Positions 20,465 through 61,950 of a stretch of 64,000 bases of DNA are shown one piece after another; position 1 is the first letter of the stretch; each line of letters begins with the position of its first letter. Source of the DNA: Escherichia coli (GTDB lineage Bacteria; Pseudomonadota; Gammaproteobacteria; Enterobacterales; Enterobacteriaceae); the NCBI RefSeq assembly GCF_050920415.1, contig NZ_CP169309.1; one strand, written 5' to 3'. A program made the position numbers and the translations under genes. The notes under the pieces were generated by a model, which was not told the origin of the DNA, searched no databases, and saw only the letters and a program-made list of their open reading frames with translations.

Positions 20465-20551
20465 AAATAAAAAAACCTGCTGGTGAGGCAGGTTCTTTTA
20501 TTTACTACTTTCAGGCCTAACACCACGGCCTGTGCAACATCGTGTTCCAAC
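20465..20551 (-). ncRNA. orzO: candidate OrzO-like antitoxin sRNA (type I TA)
   Basis: Minus-strand sigma70-like promoter (TTGCAA-N17-TATAAT, -10 at 20563..20558) and minus-strand intrinsic terminator (stem 20474..20494 followed by a U-run in the RNA); the transcript 5' region is complementary (19 of 20 nt) to the zorO 5' UTR at 20699..20718; ends are predicted, not mapped. Confidence 0.45.
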
Positions 20552-21516: not shown

Positions 21517-24500
21517 TTAATGGAAAATGACGTCAGGTGCGCTTAACGCTTCACTCAAATCAAACGTATCGAGTTCGGCAAAAGTGACAGATTTATTGTC
21601 ACGGTACACTCGAAGAGAACGGAAGCTCATTAGCGCTTTGCTATCAGCACTGTAGTGGTTAAAACCGGGTGAAAACTTAAGGACCAGCCGATACTCGCCC
21701 AGGTCATAGACACATGCGTCCTCAAAACCTGACTCCCAGCCTTTGTATCGCATTCCCATAAGTTGCCCAACGGTTGCGGATTTACCTTCCCAGCGAGTCA
21801 GGCTGTTACTGGCTGACTCGTCAGGTGTGAGCAGCACTGTGCGCCGCATCAACTGGCGAAAAGGCTGCATAATTTCGTAATCGGCAAAAACCTGTGCAAA
21901 TTCACTGCGCATTTCTGCTGTCATTTCTAACGGGTGGGCAATGCCAATCAGAGCATCCGCAGGCAGGTCAATTGGCTCATCTTGTGCGTTGCAGAACTCC
22001 CCCTCAGCGGCCACACGAAAGGCGTTGAGTAAACGACGCGGTTCATTTGCCGGATAAACCGCCCATATTAATCGCTGAGTAACCAGGCGAGTAAAGGGAT
22101 GATTAACAAACAGAGAATGAAAATCTGCCAGCGACCAGCGTCGGGTGGTGCGTAGGGCAGTTTCAAGACGCGGGAGCAGGTTTTTGCTCACCTGAGTGGC
22201 ATCTTTTTTTAGCCCTTTTAGTCGGGCCAGTGCCTCGGGCGCTTTCAGTTGATCGTCATCGGCGCGCAACCGGGGAACACTTTTCTGGCGAACGTTTTGC
22301 TGATCAAAGATAACCGGGTTGAGGTTTTCATCGAAGCGAACGGTAAACTGCCGGGGACCAAAATCAAATATCAACGCCTGCGGATCATCCAGGCCCAGTG
22401 TTGGGACTAATCTGTCCGCTAACTCTTCCTGGCTTAGTCCACGATTTTCTGCGACCACCTGAAGAAATTCCGCCGCGTTATCACGTAAGGGACGGGATTT
22501 CGCCCGTTGCGATATATGATGCAGCTGTATCAGTGCCATATCATTATTCATCTGAGTAAGTATATTCAGACCACTGACAGCACGGGCAGATTTGCCCTCT
22601 TGAGGCCAGGCAAGGATCTGTGTCGTCAGATTCCGAGCCGTGCTTTCGTCACCAAAGAGACTTAACGCCAAAAAAGCCCAGTTGTCTTTTGCGGGGGCGC
22701 CAGCCTGTTGCCAGGCGGTGAAGAGATCCCAGGCAAAAGCGGCCAGCGTTTGTGGCTGGCAGAACGTTTTCAGTTGTTCCAGCCCGCAATAAAAACGTCC
22801 GCCCTGGGTAAAGCGCAGCATTTCGCCAATAATTTCCAGAGCGTCATCAGTAACAGGTTGATTATTCGTGATAAGTCTCGGCCTGGACCACATTGCCGGA
22901 TGCCAGAAATCAGGGGCTTTGGGAATGCGTGCCGGGTAAATCTCTATTGGACTCTGTTTAAGTAATTGCTCCAGGGCAGGCCATACATCTGTACGCTGCC
23001 AACGATTGGCTACAGTTTGTAGCAATTCGCCATGTCCTTGTTCATACAGTAAACGCAGAGCATTGAGTGCCGCTTCGCTGTTATCGCCAGACCTGGCAAA
23101 GATTAATGGGATCAGCGCCGTAGCCGTATGCTCCGGCCATTGTAAAATCCACTGGCGAGCCAGATTACGCTGGCCCGCAAAACGATGCCAGACGCGGGCA
23201 ACGGGCAGCGCCAGTTCTGTTGCGCCAAAATGAATCAGCAGCGGAAATATCTCTTTGGGATGTCGGGCAAAGGCGGTGATTAATCCGGGCAAAGCATCGG
23301 TACCCAGCACACTTAACAGATATTCCACCCCGGTGTAATGAAAATCAGCCGCGACAATTTGTTGCCAGCACGATACTGCCATTTCGCGCGGCATTTGCGC
23401 GATAAGGTACAGATTCCACACTCCCCAACGCTTTTCATCAGTGTAATTAAATTTGCGTTGGAAAGTTCGCCACCCCTCCATCAACGCAACGCTATCTTGT
23501 GCCAGTAATGCGCTGGCGGCCTCTTCCCGGTAGTGTTTATTTTCAGTCTGTTTTGCCTGATAATTGAGCAATCTTCCTAATGAAGTATGTGTCTCTAGTT
23601 GATCGGTATCCAGAGCATCCAACTGTCCTGTGAGAATAAACTCATTAAACTTCCACCTGTGATCTTCAAAACCTAATTCCCGCAAGAAGGTATCGGTTCC
23701 TCTGCTAGCGAGACGTTCGTCAAAAGGCATGGCGCTAAAATGGCTGATTGTAGTTTGTTGTTCCTGCGTCCAGTGTTCCTGGGACGACCTGTACGCTTGC
23801 GGTACAAGCGTAAGTTCAGGTAGCGAAAAGTGAGTTATGGAAGTCTTTTTTCTGCCACGCCACGGTGGCGAAACGAGGATTTCAGGCAGACTGCTGTTAT
23901 CGGTGCTATCAATAACCGGTTTTGGCGAAGCCGATAAATAACTATTCACCACTGCCCGGGCTTGAGTACTTAACCACGGCATCACCTCTTCTGCCAGTTG
24001 TGGCTGCGATGCCATCAGCGTTTGTAACAGCGTATGCCAGTATTCATCACGTGCTTTTTGCTGTGCAGGCAGCTTTTTGTCTTCGATGATAGGATAACCA
24101 GGGCGCGCAGGGGGTTCTTTTAACGCCAGTAGTTCTGCCAGTGCGGCGAGCGTCGCATGGGGAAAGTTTTTACTGTATTTAGCCACACGTTGCAGGCTGG
24201 GTTTGTTTTTATCGGCAACTAACAGCAAGATGCGAATAACTTGCGGATGGTTAATTTGTACCAGCAGGCTACCGCAATCTTCTTTATGGGCATACATCGC
24301 GAGGCGTGGAACGGCTGCAATTCCCTGTTCGCGCAAAAGGGCGGCGCAGGCCGCGTAGCCGAAGTGGTTTTCATGCGACATGTAGCTGGCTTCGCGATCG
24401 CTAAATATATCCTGGCTCCAGTAGCGTTCGAGTTTTCTCACCGCTCTGGGGTCATTAGCAACAACTTTTAACCACTCCTTAGAATGAAAATGAGTCCGCG

Positions 24501-43804: not shown

Positions 43805-43940
43805 CGCAACCAAACGACTCGGGGTGCCCTTCTGCGTGAAGGCTGAGAAATACCCGTATCACCTGATCTGGATAATGCCAGCGTAGGGAAGTCACAGACC
43901 ACCAGGTCATTGCTTCTTCACGTTATGGCAGGAGCAAACT
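43805..43940 (+). promoter_or_regulatory. TPP (THI-box) riboswitch in the thiM leader
   Basis: Aptamer ctcggggtgcccttctgcgtgaaggctgagaaatacccgtatcacctgatctggataatgccagcgtagggaag at 43818..43891, with conserved CUGAGA and ACCUGAUCUGGAUAAUGCCAGCG elements; sits directly upstream of the thiM SD and ATG. Confidence 0.9.
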
Positions 43941-51749: not shown

Positions 51750-51885
51750 ACTACCCCGTAGGGCGGATAAGGCGTTCACACCGCATCCGGCAACCTATGC
51801 CTGATGCGACGCTGAAGCGTCTTATCATGCCTACACAGCGCTGCCCCGTAGGCCGGATAAGGCGTTCGCGCCGCATCTGACATAA
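51750..51885. repeat. REP/BIME elements
   Basis: Two copies of the gccggataaggcgttc(a/g)c(a/g)ccgcatc palindrome family between fbaB and gatY. Confidence 0.8.
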
Positions 51886-57516: not shown

Positions 57517-58296
57517 ATGACGATGAATTCATTCGAGCGAAGGAATAAGATCATCCAATTAGTGAATGAACAGGGAACCGTGCTTGTTCAGGATCTGGCG
57601 GGAGTATTTGCTGCCTCGGAAGCGACAATCCGTGCCGATTTGCGCTTTCTCGAACAAAAAGGCGTGGTTACGCGCTTTCATGGCGGTGCGGCGAAAATAA
57701 TGTCCGGTAATAGTGAAACCGAGACCCAGGAAGTCGGGTTTAAAGAGCGATTTCAGCTCGCCAGCGCGCCGAAAAACAGAATAGCGCAGGCGGCAGTCAA
57801 AATGATCCACGAAGGGATGACCGTTATTCTCGACAGCGGAAGTACGACAATGCTTATCGCCGAAGGTTTAATGACCGCCAAAAATATCACGGTGATTACC
57901 AACAGTCTCCCGGCGGCGTTTGCCCTTTCCGAAAATAAAGACATTACTCTGGTCGTCTGTGGTGGCACGGTCCGTCATAAAACGCGCTCGATGCATGGCT
58001 CCATTGCCGAGCGTTCATTGCAGGATATTAATGCCGATTTAATGTTTGTCGGTGCTGATGGTATTGATGCGGTTAATGGTATTACGACCTTTAATGAAGG
58101 TTATTCGATTAGCGGTGCGATGGTCACAGCCGCTAATAAAGTGATTGCCGTTCTCGATTCATCGAAATTTAACCGTCGCGGTTTTAATCAGGTACTGCCA
58201 ATCGAAAAAATTGATATTATTATTACTGATGATGCCGTGTCAGAGGTGGATAAACTGGCATTGCAGAAAACACGGGTGAAATTAATTACGGTGTAG
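57517..58296 (+). CDS. gatR: DeoR-family repressor of the gat operon (uninterrupted)
   Basis: 259-aa continuous ORF with N-terminal DeoR HTH; no IS sequence within it. Confidence 0.85.
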   Translation: MTMNSFERRNKIIQLVNEQGTVLVQDLAGVFAASEATIRADLRFLEQKGVVTRFHGGAAKIMSGNSETETQEVGFKERFQLASAPKNRIAQAAVKMIHEGMTVILDSGSTTMLIAEGLMTAKNITVITNSLPAAFALSENKDITLVVCGGTVRHKTRSMHGSIAERSLQDINADLMFVGADGIDAVNGITTFNEGYSISGAMVTAANKVIAVLDSSKFNRRGFNQVLPIEKIDIIITDDAVSEVDKLALQKTRVKLITV

Positions 58297-58377: not shown

Positions 58378-59277
58378 TTAACGCAATAATGGACAATCCG
58401 GTGGTAATCGACAGCGCAATGCTGCCGGAAGTATTTCAATATGGAAGTTTTGCCCACTCAACGGTTCGCCATCAAGATTAAAGGTAATTTCGTGTGGCGC
58501 TTGTATATCGAACCACGCCGAAGCACCTTCGATAATATTCGGGTTATCTTCGTCAGATTTTAAGGTTGATACGAGAGCCGGAAGAATTTCATCGCCGGTG
58601 AAAATGCGTAGTTGCAGCAAGCCGTCGTTAATTAATGCGTTCGGGCACAATTGCTGACCGCCACCTGCCTGACGGCCGTTACCAATACCAATGACTAGTG
58701 CGTCACCTTGCCAGTGAAAGTTTTCACCGCGGATTTCACAACGGTCCGGTTGCAGTGTATCCATGCGCATTAAGCCGTGAATGATGTAAGAGACGCCACC
58801 CAGCGCTGCTTTTAATTTTTCCGGCGTTTCTGTGGTAATACGTGTCCCAAACCCACCCGTTGCCATATTAATAAAACAGGTTTGTTTGTTGACCTGCGCC
58901 ATATCAATCGCAATAGCGTCACCAGCAATTGCTAGTTTCAGCGCCTTATCCAGTGCCTCAGGTATACCCACGCTGGTCGCGAAATCGTTCGCTGTACCTA
59001 GTGGCAAAATCCCCAGCGCGGGTATGTCATCGCCCTCACACTGAATCAGCGCCGAGGAAACTTCATTAATAGTGCCATCGCCACCACCGGCAATTACCGT
59101 TGCGACGCCCAGCTTCCGGGCCTCTTCTACAAATCGGGCGGCATCGCCTTTCTCCCAGGTGACCCGCACATGGATCGTCATTCCTTCCTCGCGCAACAGC
59201 ATAATTGCTTCGCGCAAGGGTTGATTGTCAGTACTTTTGCCGTTAAGAATCAGTAAGCTGGCGGGAAATTCTGCCAT
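58378..59277 (-). CDS. yegS: lipid kinase (DAGK catalytic-domain family)
   Basis: 299 aa; translation matches recalled YegS. Confidence 0.85.
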
Positions 59278-59759
59278 AATCGTATGCCTTTATGATTGGT
59301 CTGTAGATAGTGTAGAGCAGAAAAGAAAAGGCGGAGTCAGAACAGGATGAAAATCGGAGGATAAAAAATCAGTTCAAGGATGGGGAATTCAGTGGTTACC
59401 AGTAAGGGGGGCAACGGTACACTCGGTTTTTATCGGCATAAATGATCACTGAAAGCACTTAAGCATTATTTTACTGTGGATTCAGCGTGGCAGCGAACAT
59501 TAACGGTAATCAGGGACAAACTTCAAAAGAGCATATGCATCATATTCAACAAAGCAATGGCATCCTCAATGTACGATTCCAATTATATTAAATAATTCCT
59601 ATGAGGTTATCTGTGATAGGCCTCCATGTCTGTATTTCCTACTTATGTAGGAAATTCTGCACAAAACATTTATTATAATCCTATTCAATAATGACAATGA
59701 TGTCATTATTATATTTCAACACTAGAGAGTGTCGTTGGTGTTTAATGGGGGAAGGTGAG

Positions 59760-60077
59760 ATGAAAAAGACAGCTGCTATATCATTAATTAGTGTTTTTCT
59801 TATGTCTGGTTGTGCTGTGCATAATGATGAGACAAGTATCGGTAAATTCGGTCTTGCCTATAAAAGTAATATCCAGCGTAAACTCGATAACCAATACTAC
59901 ACTGAAGCCGAAGCATCTTTAGCCAGGGGCAGAATATCTGGTGCGGAAAATATAGTGAAAAATGATGCAGCTAATTTCTGTGTTACTCAGGGCAAAAAAA
60001 TGCAGATAGTTAACCTGAAGACTGAAGGGGCAGGATTACATGGCGTCGCGCGTCTGACATTCAAATGTGGAGAGTGA
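59760..60077 (+). CDS. yegR: small lipoprotein, 105 aa
   Basis: ORF 59691..60077; start at ATG 59760 (MKKTAAISLISVFLMSGC, lipobox MSGC). Confidence 0.75.
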   Translation: MKKTAAISLISVFLMSGCAVHNDETSIGKFGLAYKSNIQRKLDNQYYTEAEASLARGRISGAENIVKNDAANFCVTQGKKMQIVNLKTEGAGLHGVARLTFKCGE

Positions 60078-60417
60078 GAATAGATTCAAGACTACCATGG
60101 ACACATCCATTTTTATCTCTGATAAGGTATTCTTCAACACCATTATTGAATGTGAGTAATAATGACAAGCAGATAGATGAAACTACAGCAGAATTTTTAT
60201 TTTATGCGGCTATCAGAAAATGATGGCATAAATATTCCTATGCTTTAGCTTCATTTTTTGTAAGCGTCAAACATGCGCGTTCTGGGTGTGCGTAGCCGGA
60301 CCCTGTGCGAGCACGATGCCGTTAAGTGAAAGGCATCGTGCTATGAAGGGGGATTCTATCGATGTGGTCAATGGAAGACGGTCACCTGGGATCAATCCGT
60401 CTCTATGGTTTATGCAT

Positions 60418-60504
60418 AAAAAATAAGCCCGTGTAAGGGAGATTACACAGGCTAAGGAGGTGGTTCCTGGTACAGCTAGCATTTTATGGGTTATGTTTTT
60501 CAGC
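60418..60504 (-). ncRNA. cyaR: CyaR (RyeE) Hfq-dependent sRNA
   Basis: Reverse complement of 60418..60504 reads gctgaaaaacataacccataaaatgctagctgtaccaggaaccacctccttagcctgtgtaatctcccttacacgggcttatttttt, matching recalled CyaR including its terminator hairpin and U-tail. Confidence 0.85.
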
Positions 60505-60588
60505 GAAACGGATGATAACCTTAATAAATGCAGCTGTATGTGATCGGTTTCTAAGAATTTTCCATCCGGGAAAAATAATCGAAATTAA

Positions 60589-61950
60589 TCACTTACCGTG
60601 GGGGTTACGCGTGGTTTCCCCGGAGAAATTTCGCATCAGCAGCGCGTAATTTAGCTCAAGATCCTGCGGGACCGGGATCCACACAGTATAACCATCGCCA
60701 GGTGCGACCGGCATTGCTTCGCCTTTGGCGTTTTCCATATGCTCAAGGGTAAAGTTAATGTTCCCTTGCGGCGTCATCAGCTCAAGGCTGTCGCCAACGG
60801 AGAATTTATTTTTCACCGCTACCGCCGCGAGGTCGCCCTTGCGCTCACCGGTAAACTCACCAACAAACTGCTGGCGGTCAGAAACTGAATAACCGTATTC
60901 GTAGTTCTGATAATCGTCGTGAGTATGACGACGCAGGAAACCTTCGGTATAGCCACGATGCGCCAGACCTTCCAGAGTTTCCAGCAGGCTGGTATCGAAT
61001 GGTTTTCCCGCAGCTGCGTCATCGATAGCTTTACGGTAAACCTGCGCGGTGCGTGCGCAATAGTAGAAAGATTTTGTACGACCTTCGATTTTCAGCGAAT
61101 GCACGCCCATTTTGGTCAGGCGTTCAACGTGGGCGATAGCGCGCAGATCTTTCGAGTTCATGATGTAAGTGCCGTGCTCATCTTCAAACGCGGTCATATA
61201 CTCGCCCGGACGCTGAGCTTCTTCGATCATAAACACTTTGTCGGTTGGCGCGCCGATACCCAGCGTCGGCTCAACATTTTGCACCGGAATCGGCTCGTAC
61301 TTGTGCACGATGTTGCCAACGTCATCTTCTTTCCCTTCCTGGACGTTGTACTCCCAGCGGCAGGCGTTGGTGCAGGTGCCCTGGTTCGGGTCGCGCTTGT
61401 TGATATAGCCAGAGAGCAGGCAGCGACCGGAGTAGGCCATGCACAGCGCGCCGTGAACGAAGATCTCTACCTCCATATCCGGCACCTGATTGCGGATCTC
61501 TTCAATCTCTTCCAGCGACAGCTCGCGAGAGAGGATCACGCGGGTCAGGCCCATTTGCTGCCAGAATTTCACCGTCGCCCAGTTCACGGCGTTAGCCTGT
61601 ACCGAGAGATGGATCGGCATTTCAGGGAAGTGCTCACGCACCAGCATAATCAGCCCTGGATCGGACATTATTAGCGCATCCGGCCCCATTTCCACCACCG
61701 GTTTCAGGTCACGGATAAAGGTTTTCAGCTTGGCGTTGTGCGGTGCAATGTTGACCACAACATAAAACTTTTTCCCCAGCGCGTGGGCTTCATTAATGCC
61801 GAGCTGAAGATTTTCGTGGTTGAATTCGTTGTTGCGCACACGCAGGGAGTAACGCGGCTGGCCCGCATAAACAGCATCTGCGCCATAAGCGAAAGCGTAA
61901 CGCATATTTTTCAGCGTTCCCGCCGGGGAAAGGAGTTCCGGTTTAAACAT
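60589..61950 (-). CDS. yegQ: U32-family peptidase-like protein (implicated in 23S rRNA C2501 hydroxylation)
   Basis: 453 aa; translation matches recalled YegQ. Confidence 0.85.
   Translation of the reverse strand: MFKPELLSPAGTLKNMRYAFAYGADAVYAGQPRYSLRVRNNEFNHENLQLGINEAHALGKKFYVVVNIAPHNAKLKTFIRDLKPVVEMGPDALIMSDPGLIMLVREHFPEMPIHLSVQANAVNWATVKFWQQMGLTRVILSRELSLEEIEEIRNQVPDMEVEIFVHGALCMAYSGRCLLSGYINKRDPNQGTCTNACRWEYNVQEGKEDDVGNIVHKYEPIPVQNVEPTLGIGAPTDKVFMIEEAQRPGEYMTAFEDEHGTYIMNSKDLRAIAHVERLTKMGVHSLKIEGRTKSFYYCARTAQVYRKAIDDAAAGKPFDTSLLETLEGLAHRGYTEGFLRRHTHDDYQNYEYGYSVSDRQQFVGEFTGERKGDLAAVAVKNKFSVGDSLELMTPQGNINFTLEHMENAKGEAMPVAPGDGYTVWIPVPQDLELNYALLMRNFSGETTRNPHGK

Follow-up and report, generated by a model that had tools for sequence, protein, structure and literature searches.

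The 3′ end of the sRNA gene cyaR carries the complete attachment core of phage P2 in our window, i.e., the whole stretch of 64,000 nucleotides of Escherichia coli DNA analyzed here, and the DNA beside it bears the marks of an earlier integration at the same core. By sequence comparison, positions 60418–60444 are the predicted unoccupied chromosomal attB of P2 and its close relatives. The adjoining block 59363–60417, which includes the gene yegR, is well supported as the putative remnant of an earlier P2-like prophage. We consider this joint reading, an unoccupied attB at 60418–60444 next to an older P2-like prophage remnant at 59363–60417, to be highly probable.

The locus is arranged as gatD, gatR, yegS (−), yegR (+), a spacer, cyaR (−), yegQ/trhP (−), yegP, baeR and baeS, which is the yegQ-cyaR-yegR-yegS neighbourhood of K-12 in reversed orientation. 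Host flanks are the lipid kinase gene yegS on the left (58378–59277, minus strand) and yegQ/trhP on the right (60589–61950, minus strand). From the yegR stop codon, which ends at 60077, to the cyaR 3′ end at 60418 the spacer measures 340 bp (60078–60417). It holds only short mechanical open reading frames, and blastn and tblastx against P2 found no P2 gene similarity in it outside the att-arm relic described below. Left of yegS, the DeoR-family repressor gene gatR (57517–58296) is a complete 259-aa open reading frame; K-12 gatR is annotated as incomplete, with its N-terminus missing. Elsewhere in the window, Rfam matches above the gathering score were an OrzO-P antitoxin RNA (20469–20544, minus strand, 98.9 bits), three copies of naRNA4 (829–1005 and 51761–51831, plus strand) and a TPP riboswitch (43810–43906, plus strand), the latter upstream of thiM by comparison with the L006 annotation.

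cyaR is a CRP-dependent sRNA gene. The first-pass annotation of this DNA had called it intact on the minus strand at 60418–60504, and both lines of evidence agree: these 87 nt are identical base for base to the K-12 gene, and the Rfam family CyaR_RyeE (RF00112) matched 60421–60506 on the minus strand at 100.7 bits (gathering score 47) over the full length of the covariance model, positions 1–85 of 85. As expected for a member of this family, the gene has a conserved position downstream of yegQ and an intrinsic terminator. yegQ lies on the same strand as cyaR, and the yegQ-cyaR synteny is found in 120 species loci, which we obtained from a scan for the conserved part of cyaR in a single genome of each species. 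The terminator consists of a stem-loop (60453–60426) and a U tail and was the sole terminator-like site that a terminator scan found in 59200–60700. With a sequence identical to that of the studied K-12 gene, CRP-dependent expression and Hfq-dependent target regulation are predicted for the cyaR of the window. We also observed a G-U wobble in the terminator (60426–60453) of E. coli and many other species, with GCCTGTGT as the 5′ half and ACACGGGC as the 3′ half. A few lineages among loci L010–L129 have a perfect complement, e.g., ACACAGGC in L038. Speculatively, this G-U pair could date from past replacement by phage-borne sequence, because the phage core supplies the 3′ half upon integration.

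The P2 record NC_001895 annotates attP at 24356–24382 as AAAAAATAAGCCCGTGTAAGGGAGATT. Window positions 60418–60444, the last 27 nt of cyaR, match this core at 27 of 27 positions, and it spans the terminator loop, the 3′ half of the stem and the U tail. This was the single exact occurrence of the 27-mer in the window; with up to three mismatches allowed, no second site was found, nor any match in 100 shuffles. The annotated attP core thus coincides with the cyaR 3′ end, in line with the first-pass annotation, which named the terminator region as an integration site of P2-family phages. We take the cyaR site to be the ‘locI’ of Barreiro & Haggard-Ljungquist 1992; for E. coli C, locI would also be that of Yu et al. 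1989. The window shares with E. coli C locI the locus between yegQ and yegR at the cyaR 3′ end and a 27-bp core equal to attP; nothing essential differs, the window strain having a rare, more divergent flanking allele.

Following established P2 biology, the phage Int protein, a tyrosine recombinase, would assemble together with IHF on the arms of phage attP, and the complex would capture the 27-bp core, with strand exchange within it. cyaR would keep a complete terminator after integration, because the phage brings its own copy of the core. The integrated prophage would then sit between yegR and cyaR, with int beside yegR and ogr beside cyaR. The principle is the same for phages at the 3′ ends of other tRNA, tmRNA and sRNA genes (P2-like phages at rybB; ryeB in Salmonella; PMC3603311), where the att core duplicates the 3′ end and the gene is restored on integration. 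cyaR, among the few sRNA genes known to be targeted, likewise has its terminator hairpin inside the core.

We surveyed 5,426 complete E. coli genomes for the state of this site, counting with specific attL and K-12 junction queries and with yegR-yegQ contiguity. A P2-type prophage, recognized from a B arm-core-P′-int junction in one piece, occupied the site in 814 genomes (15%). The K-12-type junction of B arm, partial core and D′ was present in 356 (6.6%). yegR and yegQ were contiguous in 4,554 genomes (84%), a figure that includes the K-12 type, which leaves about 4,200 genomes (about 77%) unoccupied like the window. A 181-bp junction query for counting empty sites failed, since the P2 P arm resembles the B arm too closely and attR of occupied genomes also scores 84% coverage.

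The occupied state is well exemplified by strain 98224, where int, C, cox, replication genes and P2-family capsid genes follow directly after B arm and core. The phage record ON470606 is likewise a prophage at the cyaR junction, in the order B arm-core-P′-int, deposited together with its gatR-yegS-yegR host flank. In these two and in the 814 genomes, the P2-type prophages proposed as a check of other strains are found at exactly the cyaR junction. K-12 carries a 641-bp segment between yegR and cyaR that is 96.7% identical to P2 and contains D′ (the 3′ end of D), ogrK, the P arm and the core; an 18-bp partial core borders it towards yegR, and the full core borders it towards cyaR. This is the cryptic ogrK remnant that had been expected between cyaR and yegR, and Barreiro and Haggard-Ljungquist reportedly described it as well in 1992. 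An alignment of 60078–60504 to K-12 and to the attP core places the core at the cyaR 3′ end and the K-12 remnant between yegR and cyaR. The window itself has neither a prophage nor the K-12 remnant at this position, and the first impression of an empty site holds to that extent. Published work has established cyaR/ryeE as an integration site of P2, found empty, occupied or with a remnant depending on the strain. Bobay et al. (PMC3603311) cite Wassarman et al. 2001 for ryeE as a phage target known earlier in E. coli, and Table 2 of the E. coli W paper (PMC3032704) lists for the insertion site ‘cyaR RNA’ Wphi2 (P2) in W, ogr-D′ in K-12, P2*B in B and none in Crooks.

The flank of the core is an uncommon allele. 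Queried with 59600–60700, the window was 100% identical to E. coli MFDS1022581, and its identity to most other E. coli genomes was only about 93%; at least 99% identity over 60330–60510 was found in 69 of 5,425 records. The core could be conserved solely as the cyaR terminator and be unable to act as attB here, e.g., if the divergent B arm blocked it. The rarity of the interval allele and its divergence of about 7% from most E. coli would fit such a block, but strain 98224 carries its P2-type prophage at a B arm of the window's own allele, including a 12-bp stretch that other alleles lack. Moreover, P2 secondary sites work with only 17–20 of 27 core matches and with unrelated flanks. We regard a disabled site as extremely unlikely and retain 60418–60444 as the predicted attB.

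We also noted that the cyaR-yegQ part (60418–60700) is about 98% identical to other strains, unlike the divergent 59278–60417. This difference suggests that the yegS-cyaR interval of the window may be an old haplotype or an introgression from another Escherichia clade. Within the spacer, the allele alignment delimits an AT-rich segment of 171 bp (60083–60253, 33% GC), which is present in the window, in LF82 and in the host of prophage 720R8 and absent from K-12, O157, Res13 and 98224.

For recent occupancy, then, the spacer is empty as first described. For older occupancy it is not, for its last 59 bp (60359–60417), the B arm of today's attB, are a decayed P2 P arm. The 15-mer TCGATGTGGTCAATG at 60359–60373 is identical to the start of the annotated P-arm site of P2 Int, and blastn aligned 60359–60444 with P2 24293–24382 at 76.9% identity over 91 positions (E 2e-10). 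Without the core, the P-arm relic reached a local score of 33 compared with 14.3 ± 2.2 for shuffled sequences, none of 2000 shuffles attaining 33 (z about 8.6). A control on the other side of the core, B′ against P′, gave no similarity. In K-12, LF82 and O157, the 12-bp stretch 60392–60403 of the P-arm relic is deleted. When the spacer (60078–60417) was searched with blastn against 50,697 phage records, it matched only records that include E. coli flank (ON470606, AY639599).

A matching left end is found on the yegS side. Positions 59363–59389, AAAAAATCAGTTCAAGGATGGGGAATT, are identical to the core at 18 of 27 positions in an ungapped alignment and are in register with flanking homologies on both sides; we read them as a decayed core copy, the putative attL of the fossil, and they are kept in all seven aligned E. 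coli alleles. Next to them, 59390–59480 are a relic of a P2-like P′ arm, comprising the Cox-site region and the first Int arm repeat, ACTGTGGA. The blastn alignment of 59362–59480 with P2 24355–24476 had 75.4% identity over 122 positions (E 9e-16), and the local score of the P′ relic was 87 compared with 15.3 ± 2.2 for shuffles (z about 33). About 70–77 bp of it are deleted in K-12, LF82, O157 and others. No phage was found by blastn of the P′ relic region (59340–59530) against the 50,697 phage records; the longest exact word shared with P2, judged by eye, is 10 nt, below the 11-nt seed. Positions 59278–59362, between this left end and yegS, are by colinearity with Escherichia lineages the ancestral cyaR-yegS spacer, now parted from cyaR by the fossil.

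The block between these ends, 59363–60417, comprises 1,055 bp with 39% GC compared with 50% for the window, and it is bounded by direct repeats of the core (59363–59389, 18/27; 60418–60444, 27/27). P2-like stretches in 59278–60460 were two only, and they stand as core-P′ ... P-core, i.e., in prophage order and orientation. When cyaR was joined in silico to position 59362 and below, the junction was colinear with the Escherichia locus L046, 236 of 250 positions being identical, and 226 of 250 were identical in each of L064 and E. whittamii L096. Removal of the block thus restores the cyaR-85 nt-yegS arrangement of these three Escherichia lineages. Together, the precise empty site and the core duplication mark 59363–60417 as DNA inserted at the cyaR core, the pattern expected of an integrated P2-like element.

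Core repeats, arm placement and a precise empty site are present, and recognizable phage genes are not. Searches of the fossil interior with blastn and tblastx against the whole P2 genome and the 98224 prophage revealed no phage gene remnants, and no int relic at 59500–59760. The case for a prophage is consequently made by the att arms and by comparison with the empty site. As the arm relics are only 67–77% identical to P2, the donor was not P2 itself.

Could there have been no older prophage at all, the P-arm likeness stemming from phage capture of host DNA downstream of cyaR, or from chance or convergence? yegR and the spacer would then be ordinary host DNA. It is true that integrative elements bring along the 3′ end of the RNA gene they target, that similarity to P2 is modest (67–77%) and that no phage gene is left inside the block. 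The similar segments, though, extend beyond cyaR-adjacent sequence and include an Int arm-type site and the Cox-site region; a second segment, P′-like and accompanied by a decayed core, is found at a distance of 1 kb, just where attL is expected; the empty site is precise in lineages that lack the block; and the B′/P′ control shows no similarity. We judge host capture or coincidence to be very unlikely and prefer the remnant of a P2-like prophage.

On this P2-like prophage reading, the history of the locus could have run as follows. After integration, the attL copy of the core, freed from cyaR, would have decayed to 18 of 27 positions, and the attR copy, still the 3′ end of cyaR, would have stayed intact, so that today's attB would be the fossil attR. 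Every recognizable phage gene would have been lost, with both att arms still legible. The D′-ogrK remnant of K-12 would represent a second, later integration at the same core. That remnant (yegZ/D′-ogrK) is what truncation has left of a P2-type prophage, its attR-proximal end. It shares the core with the fossil of the window but is young (96.7% identity to P2), keeps ogr and is absent from the window; the fossil, in contrast, is older and keeps only the att arms and yegR. All seven E. coli alleles that we aligned, i.e., K-12, LF82, O157, Res13, 98224, the 720R8 host and the window, contain the fossil, and the window has the least eroded version among the alleles compared. Erosion in K-12 probably explains why the fossil is not obvious there. 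Searches of the searchable literature for yegR with prophage and for ogrK/yegZ returned no description of it.

yegR (59760–60077, plus strand) is the only gene in the fossil block. It encodes a protein of 105 aa that belongs to Pfam PF27694 and is predicted to be a lipoprotein from a lipobox LMSGC seen in the sequence. YegR is almost confined to E. coli and Shigella, and other genera lack it at their cyaR locus. Compared with six other E. coli alleles, the window allele had a dN/dS of 0.06–0.15 at a dS of about 0.2; by this measure, yegR is under purifying selection. Two distant YegR homologues lie in non-P2 contexts, an IS-rich island and the chromosomal mug-fdh locus. No homologues were found in bona fide phages, the phage tblastn and PHROG matches being host flank of prophage-derived records. 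YegR does match phrog_21109 at 6e-70, but this family is probably built from host flanks, and we rejected YegR as a phage protein. yegR might have come as phage cargo or arrived later. The cargo idea is plausible, as some P2-like prophages at cyaR in other genera carry variable open reading frames between ogr and the P arm.

Repeats flank yegR at 59676–59711 and 60141–60168, inverted and direct, as TAATCCTATTCAATAATG / CATTATTGAATGTGAGTA and as AATAATGACAA, the latter twice; the right-hand copy lies within the 171-bp segment missing from K-12, O157, Res13 and 98224. A perfect 10-bp palindrome, AATAATGACA-N4-TGTCATTATT, is located upstream of yegR at 59687–59710. In such AT-rich DNA these repeats could have arisen by chance; they could also be an operator or the ends of a small mobile cassette.

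Downstream of yegR, the spacer contains a perfect hairpin at 60310–60342 with a stem of 11 bp (60310–60320/60332–60342) and a loop of 11 nt. The first-pass annotation had described it as a 10-bp stem at 60311–60341 lacking a U-tract; the hairpin is real and the U-tract is indeed missing, but the stem is one pair longer. Its folding energy is −28.4 kcal/mol (z = −6.6). The distance to the P-arm relic is 16 nt, which puts the hairpin at about the place of the ogr/F-operon terminator in P2 and its relatives; it has no sequence similarity to these terminators. As an intrinsic terminator the hairpin was rejected: there is no U tract on either strand, and the terminator scan found only that of cyaR. 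In phage collections, the hairpin occurred only within the host flank of prophage-derived records. An IMG/VR scan found it in 86 contigs, where readable within a few hundred bases of the contig end, i.e., in host flank. We noted for the ‘viral’ IMG/VR contigs (L137–L216) that the hairpin is often 381–413 nt from the contig end, so that the prophage call starts at yegR; with this flank pattern, phrog_21109 is probably host flank and not a phage protein.

The hairpin most likely began as a phage terminator that has since decayed, or else it forms a 3′ stem-loop on the yegR transcript. We cautiously entertain the possibility that it is a working element, which ends or stabilizes the yegR transcript as a 3′ stem-loop or serves as a protein-binding palindrome; this would be compatible with the attB and the fossil prophage as explained above. 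Such a role would agree with its high stability (z = −6.6), with its retention in all E. coli alleles examined while neighbouring sequence lost stretches, and with its position about 60 nt past the yegR stop in K-12-type alleles. Two of the three substitutions in L103, judged by eye, would keep G-U pairs on the yegR-sense strand. Against a working element stand the lack of a U tract on either strand, the absence of an Rfam family match for 60310–60342 and the pattern of changes: the hairpin is conserved in E. coli, but the changes in LF82 and L103 are non-compensatory, that in LF82 being a mismatch at the top of the stem.

Beyond E. coli, most genera of Enterobacteriaceae have yegS 75–110 nt past the cyaR 3′ end, without yegR. 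Of 119 species-level loci, at least 13 have a P2-type arm motif no more than 110 nt from the cyaR 3′ end, often with ogr nearby, and at each such P2-type locus the core matches the cyaR terminator of its own host. P2-like phages therefore target the 3′ end of cyaR generally in Enterobacteriaceae, beyond E. coli. P2-like P arms, often with ogr, were seen right after cyaR in Citrobacter, Enterobacter, Buttiauxella and, decayed, Salmonella diarizonae; by eye, Trabulsiella and E. albertii also have them. Between ogr and P arm, Citrobacter youngae (L023) has an open reading frame of 201 aa, and Enterobacter (L078) has two, which we read as secreted from their signal peptides. At one further locus, L081, on a contig labelled ‘MAG: Collinsella sp.’, the cyaR 3′ end and P2 core are exactly those of E. 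coli, and the encoded Ogr shows 100% identity to P2 Ogr; here an E. coli or P2 contig has almost certainly been mis-binned into an actinobacterial MAG.

The empty attB as first noted re-identifies a classical phage site and adds little new knowledge. The fossil is a further instance of a familiar phenomenon, not a new kind of system, and its value is modest: it would explain where the orphan yegR and the entire yegS-cyaR interval of E. coli came from. It also carries a warning, since prophage predictors and families of the phrog_21109 type absorb yegR and the spacer as ‘phage’ through flank overrun. Tentatively, and with some doubt on our part, P2's preferred E. coli site may itself be an ancient prophage attR and yegR domesticated cargo from between ogr and attP, in a nested-fossil architecture that would be undescribed before. 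P2 might prefer the cyaR site partly because the fossil P arm retains an Int arm-type site. For E. coli, one sRNA 3′ end would have been used repeatedly by P2-like phages, as the ancient fossil, as the K-12 remnant and as live prophages in about 15% of genomes, where the core copy overlapping a functional gene is preserved and the other copy decays.
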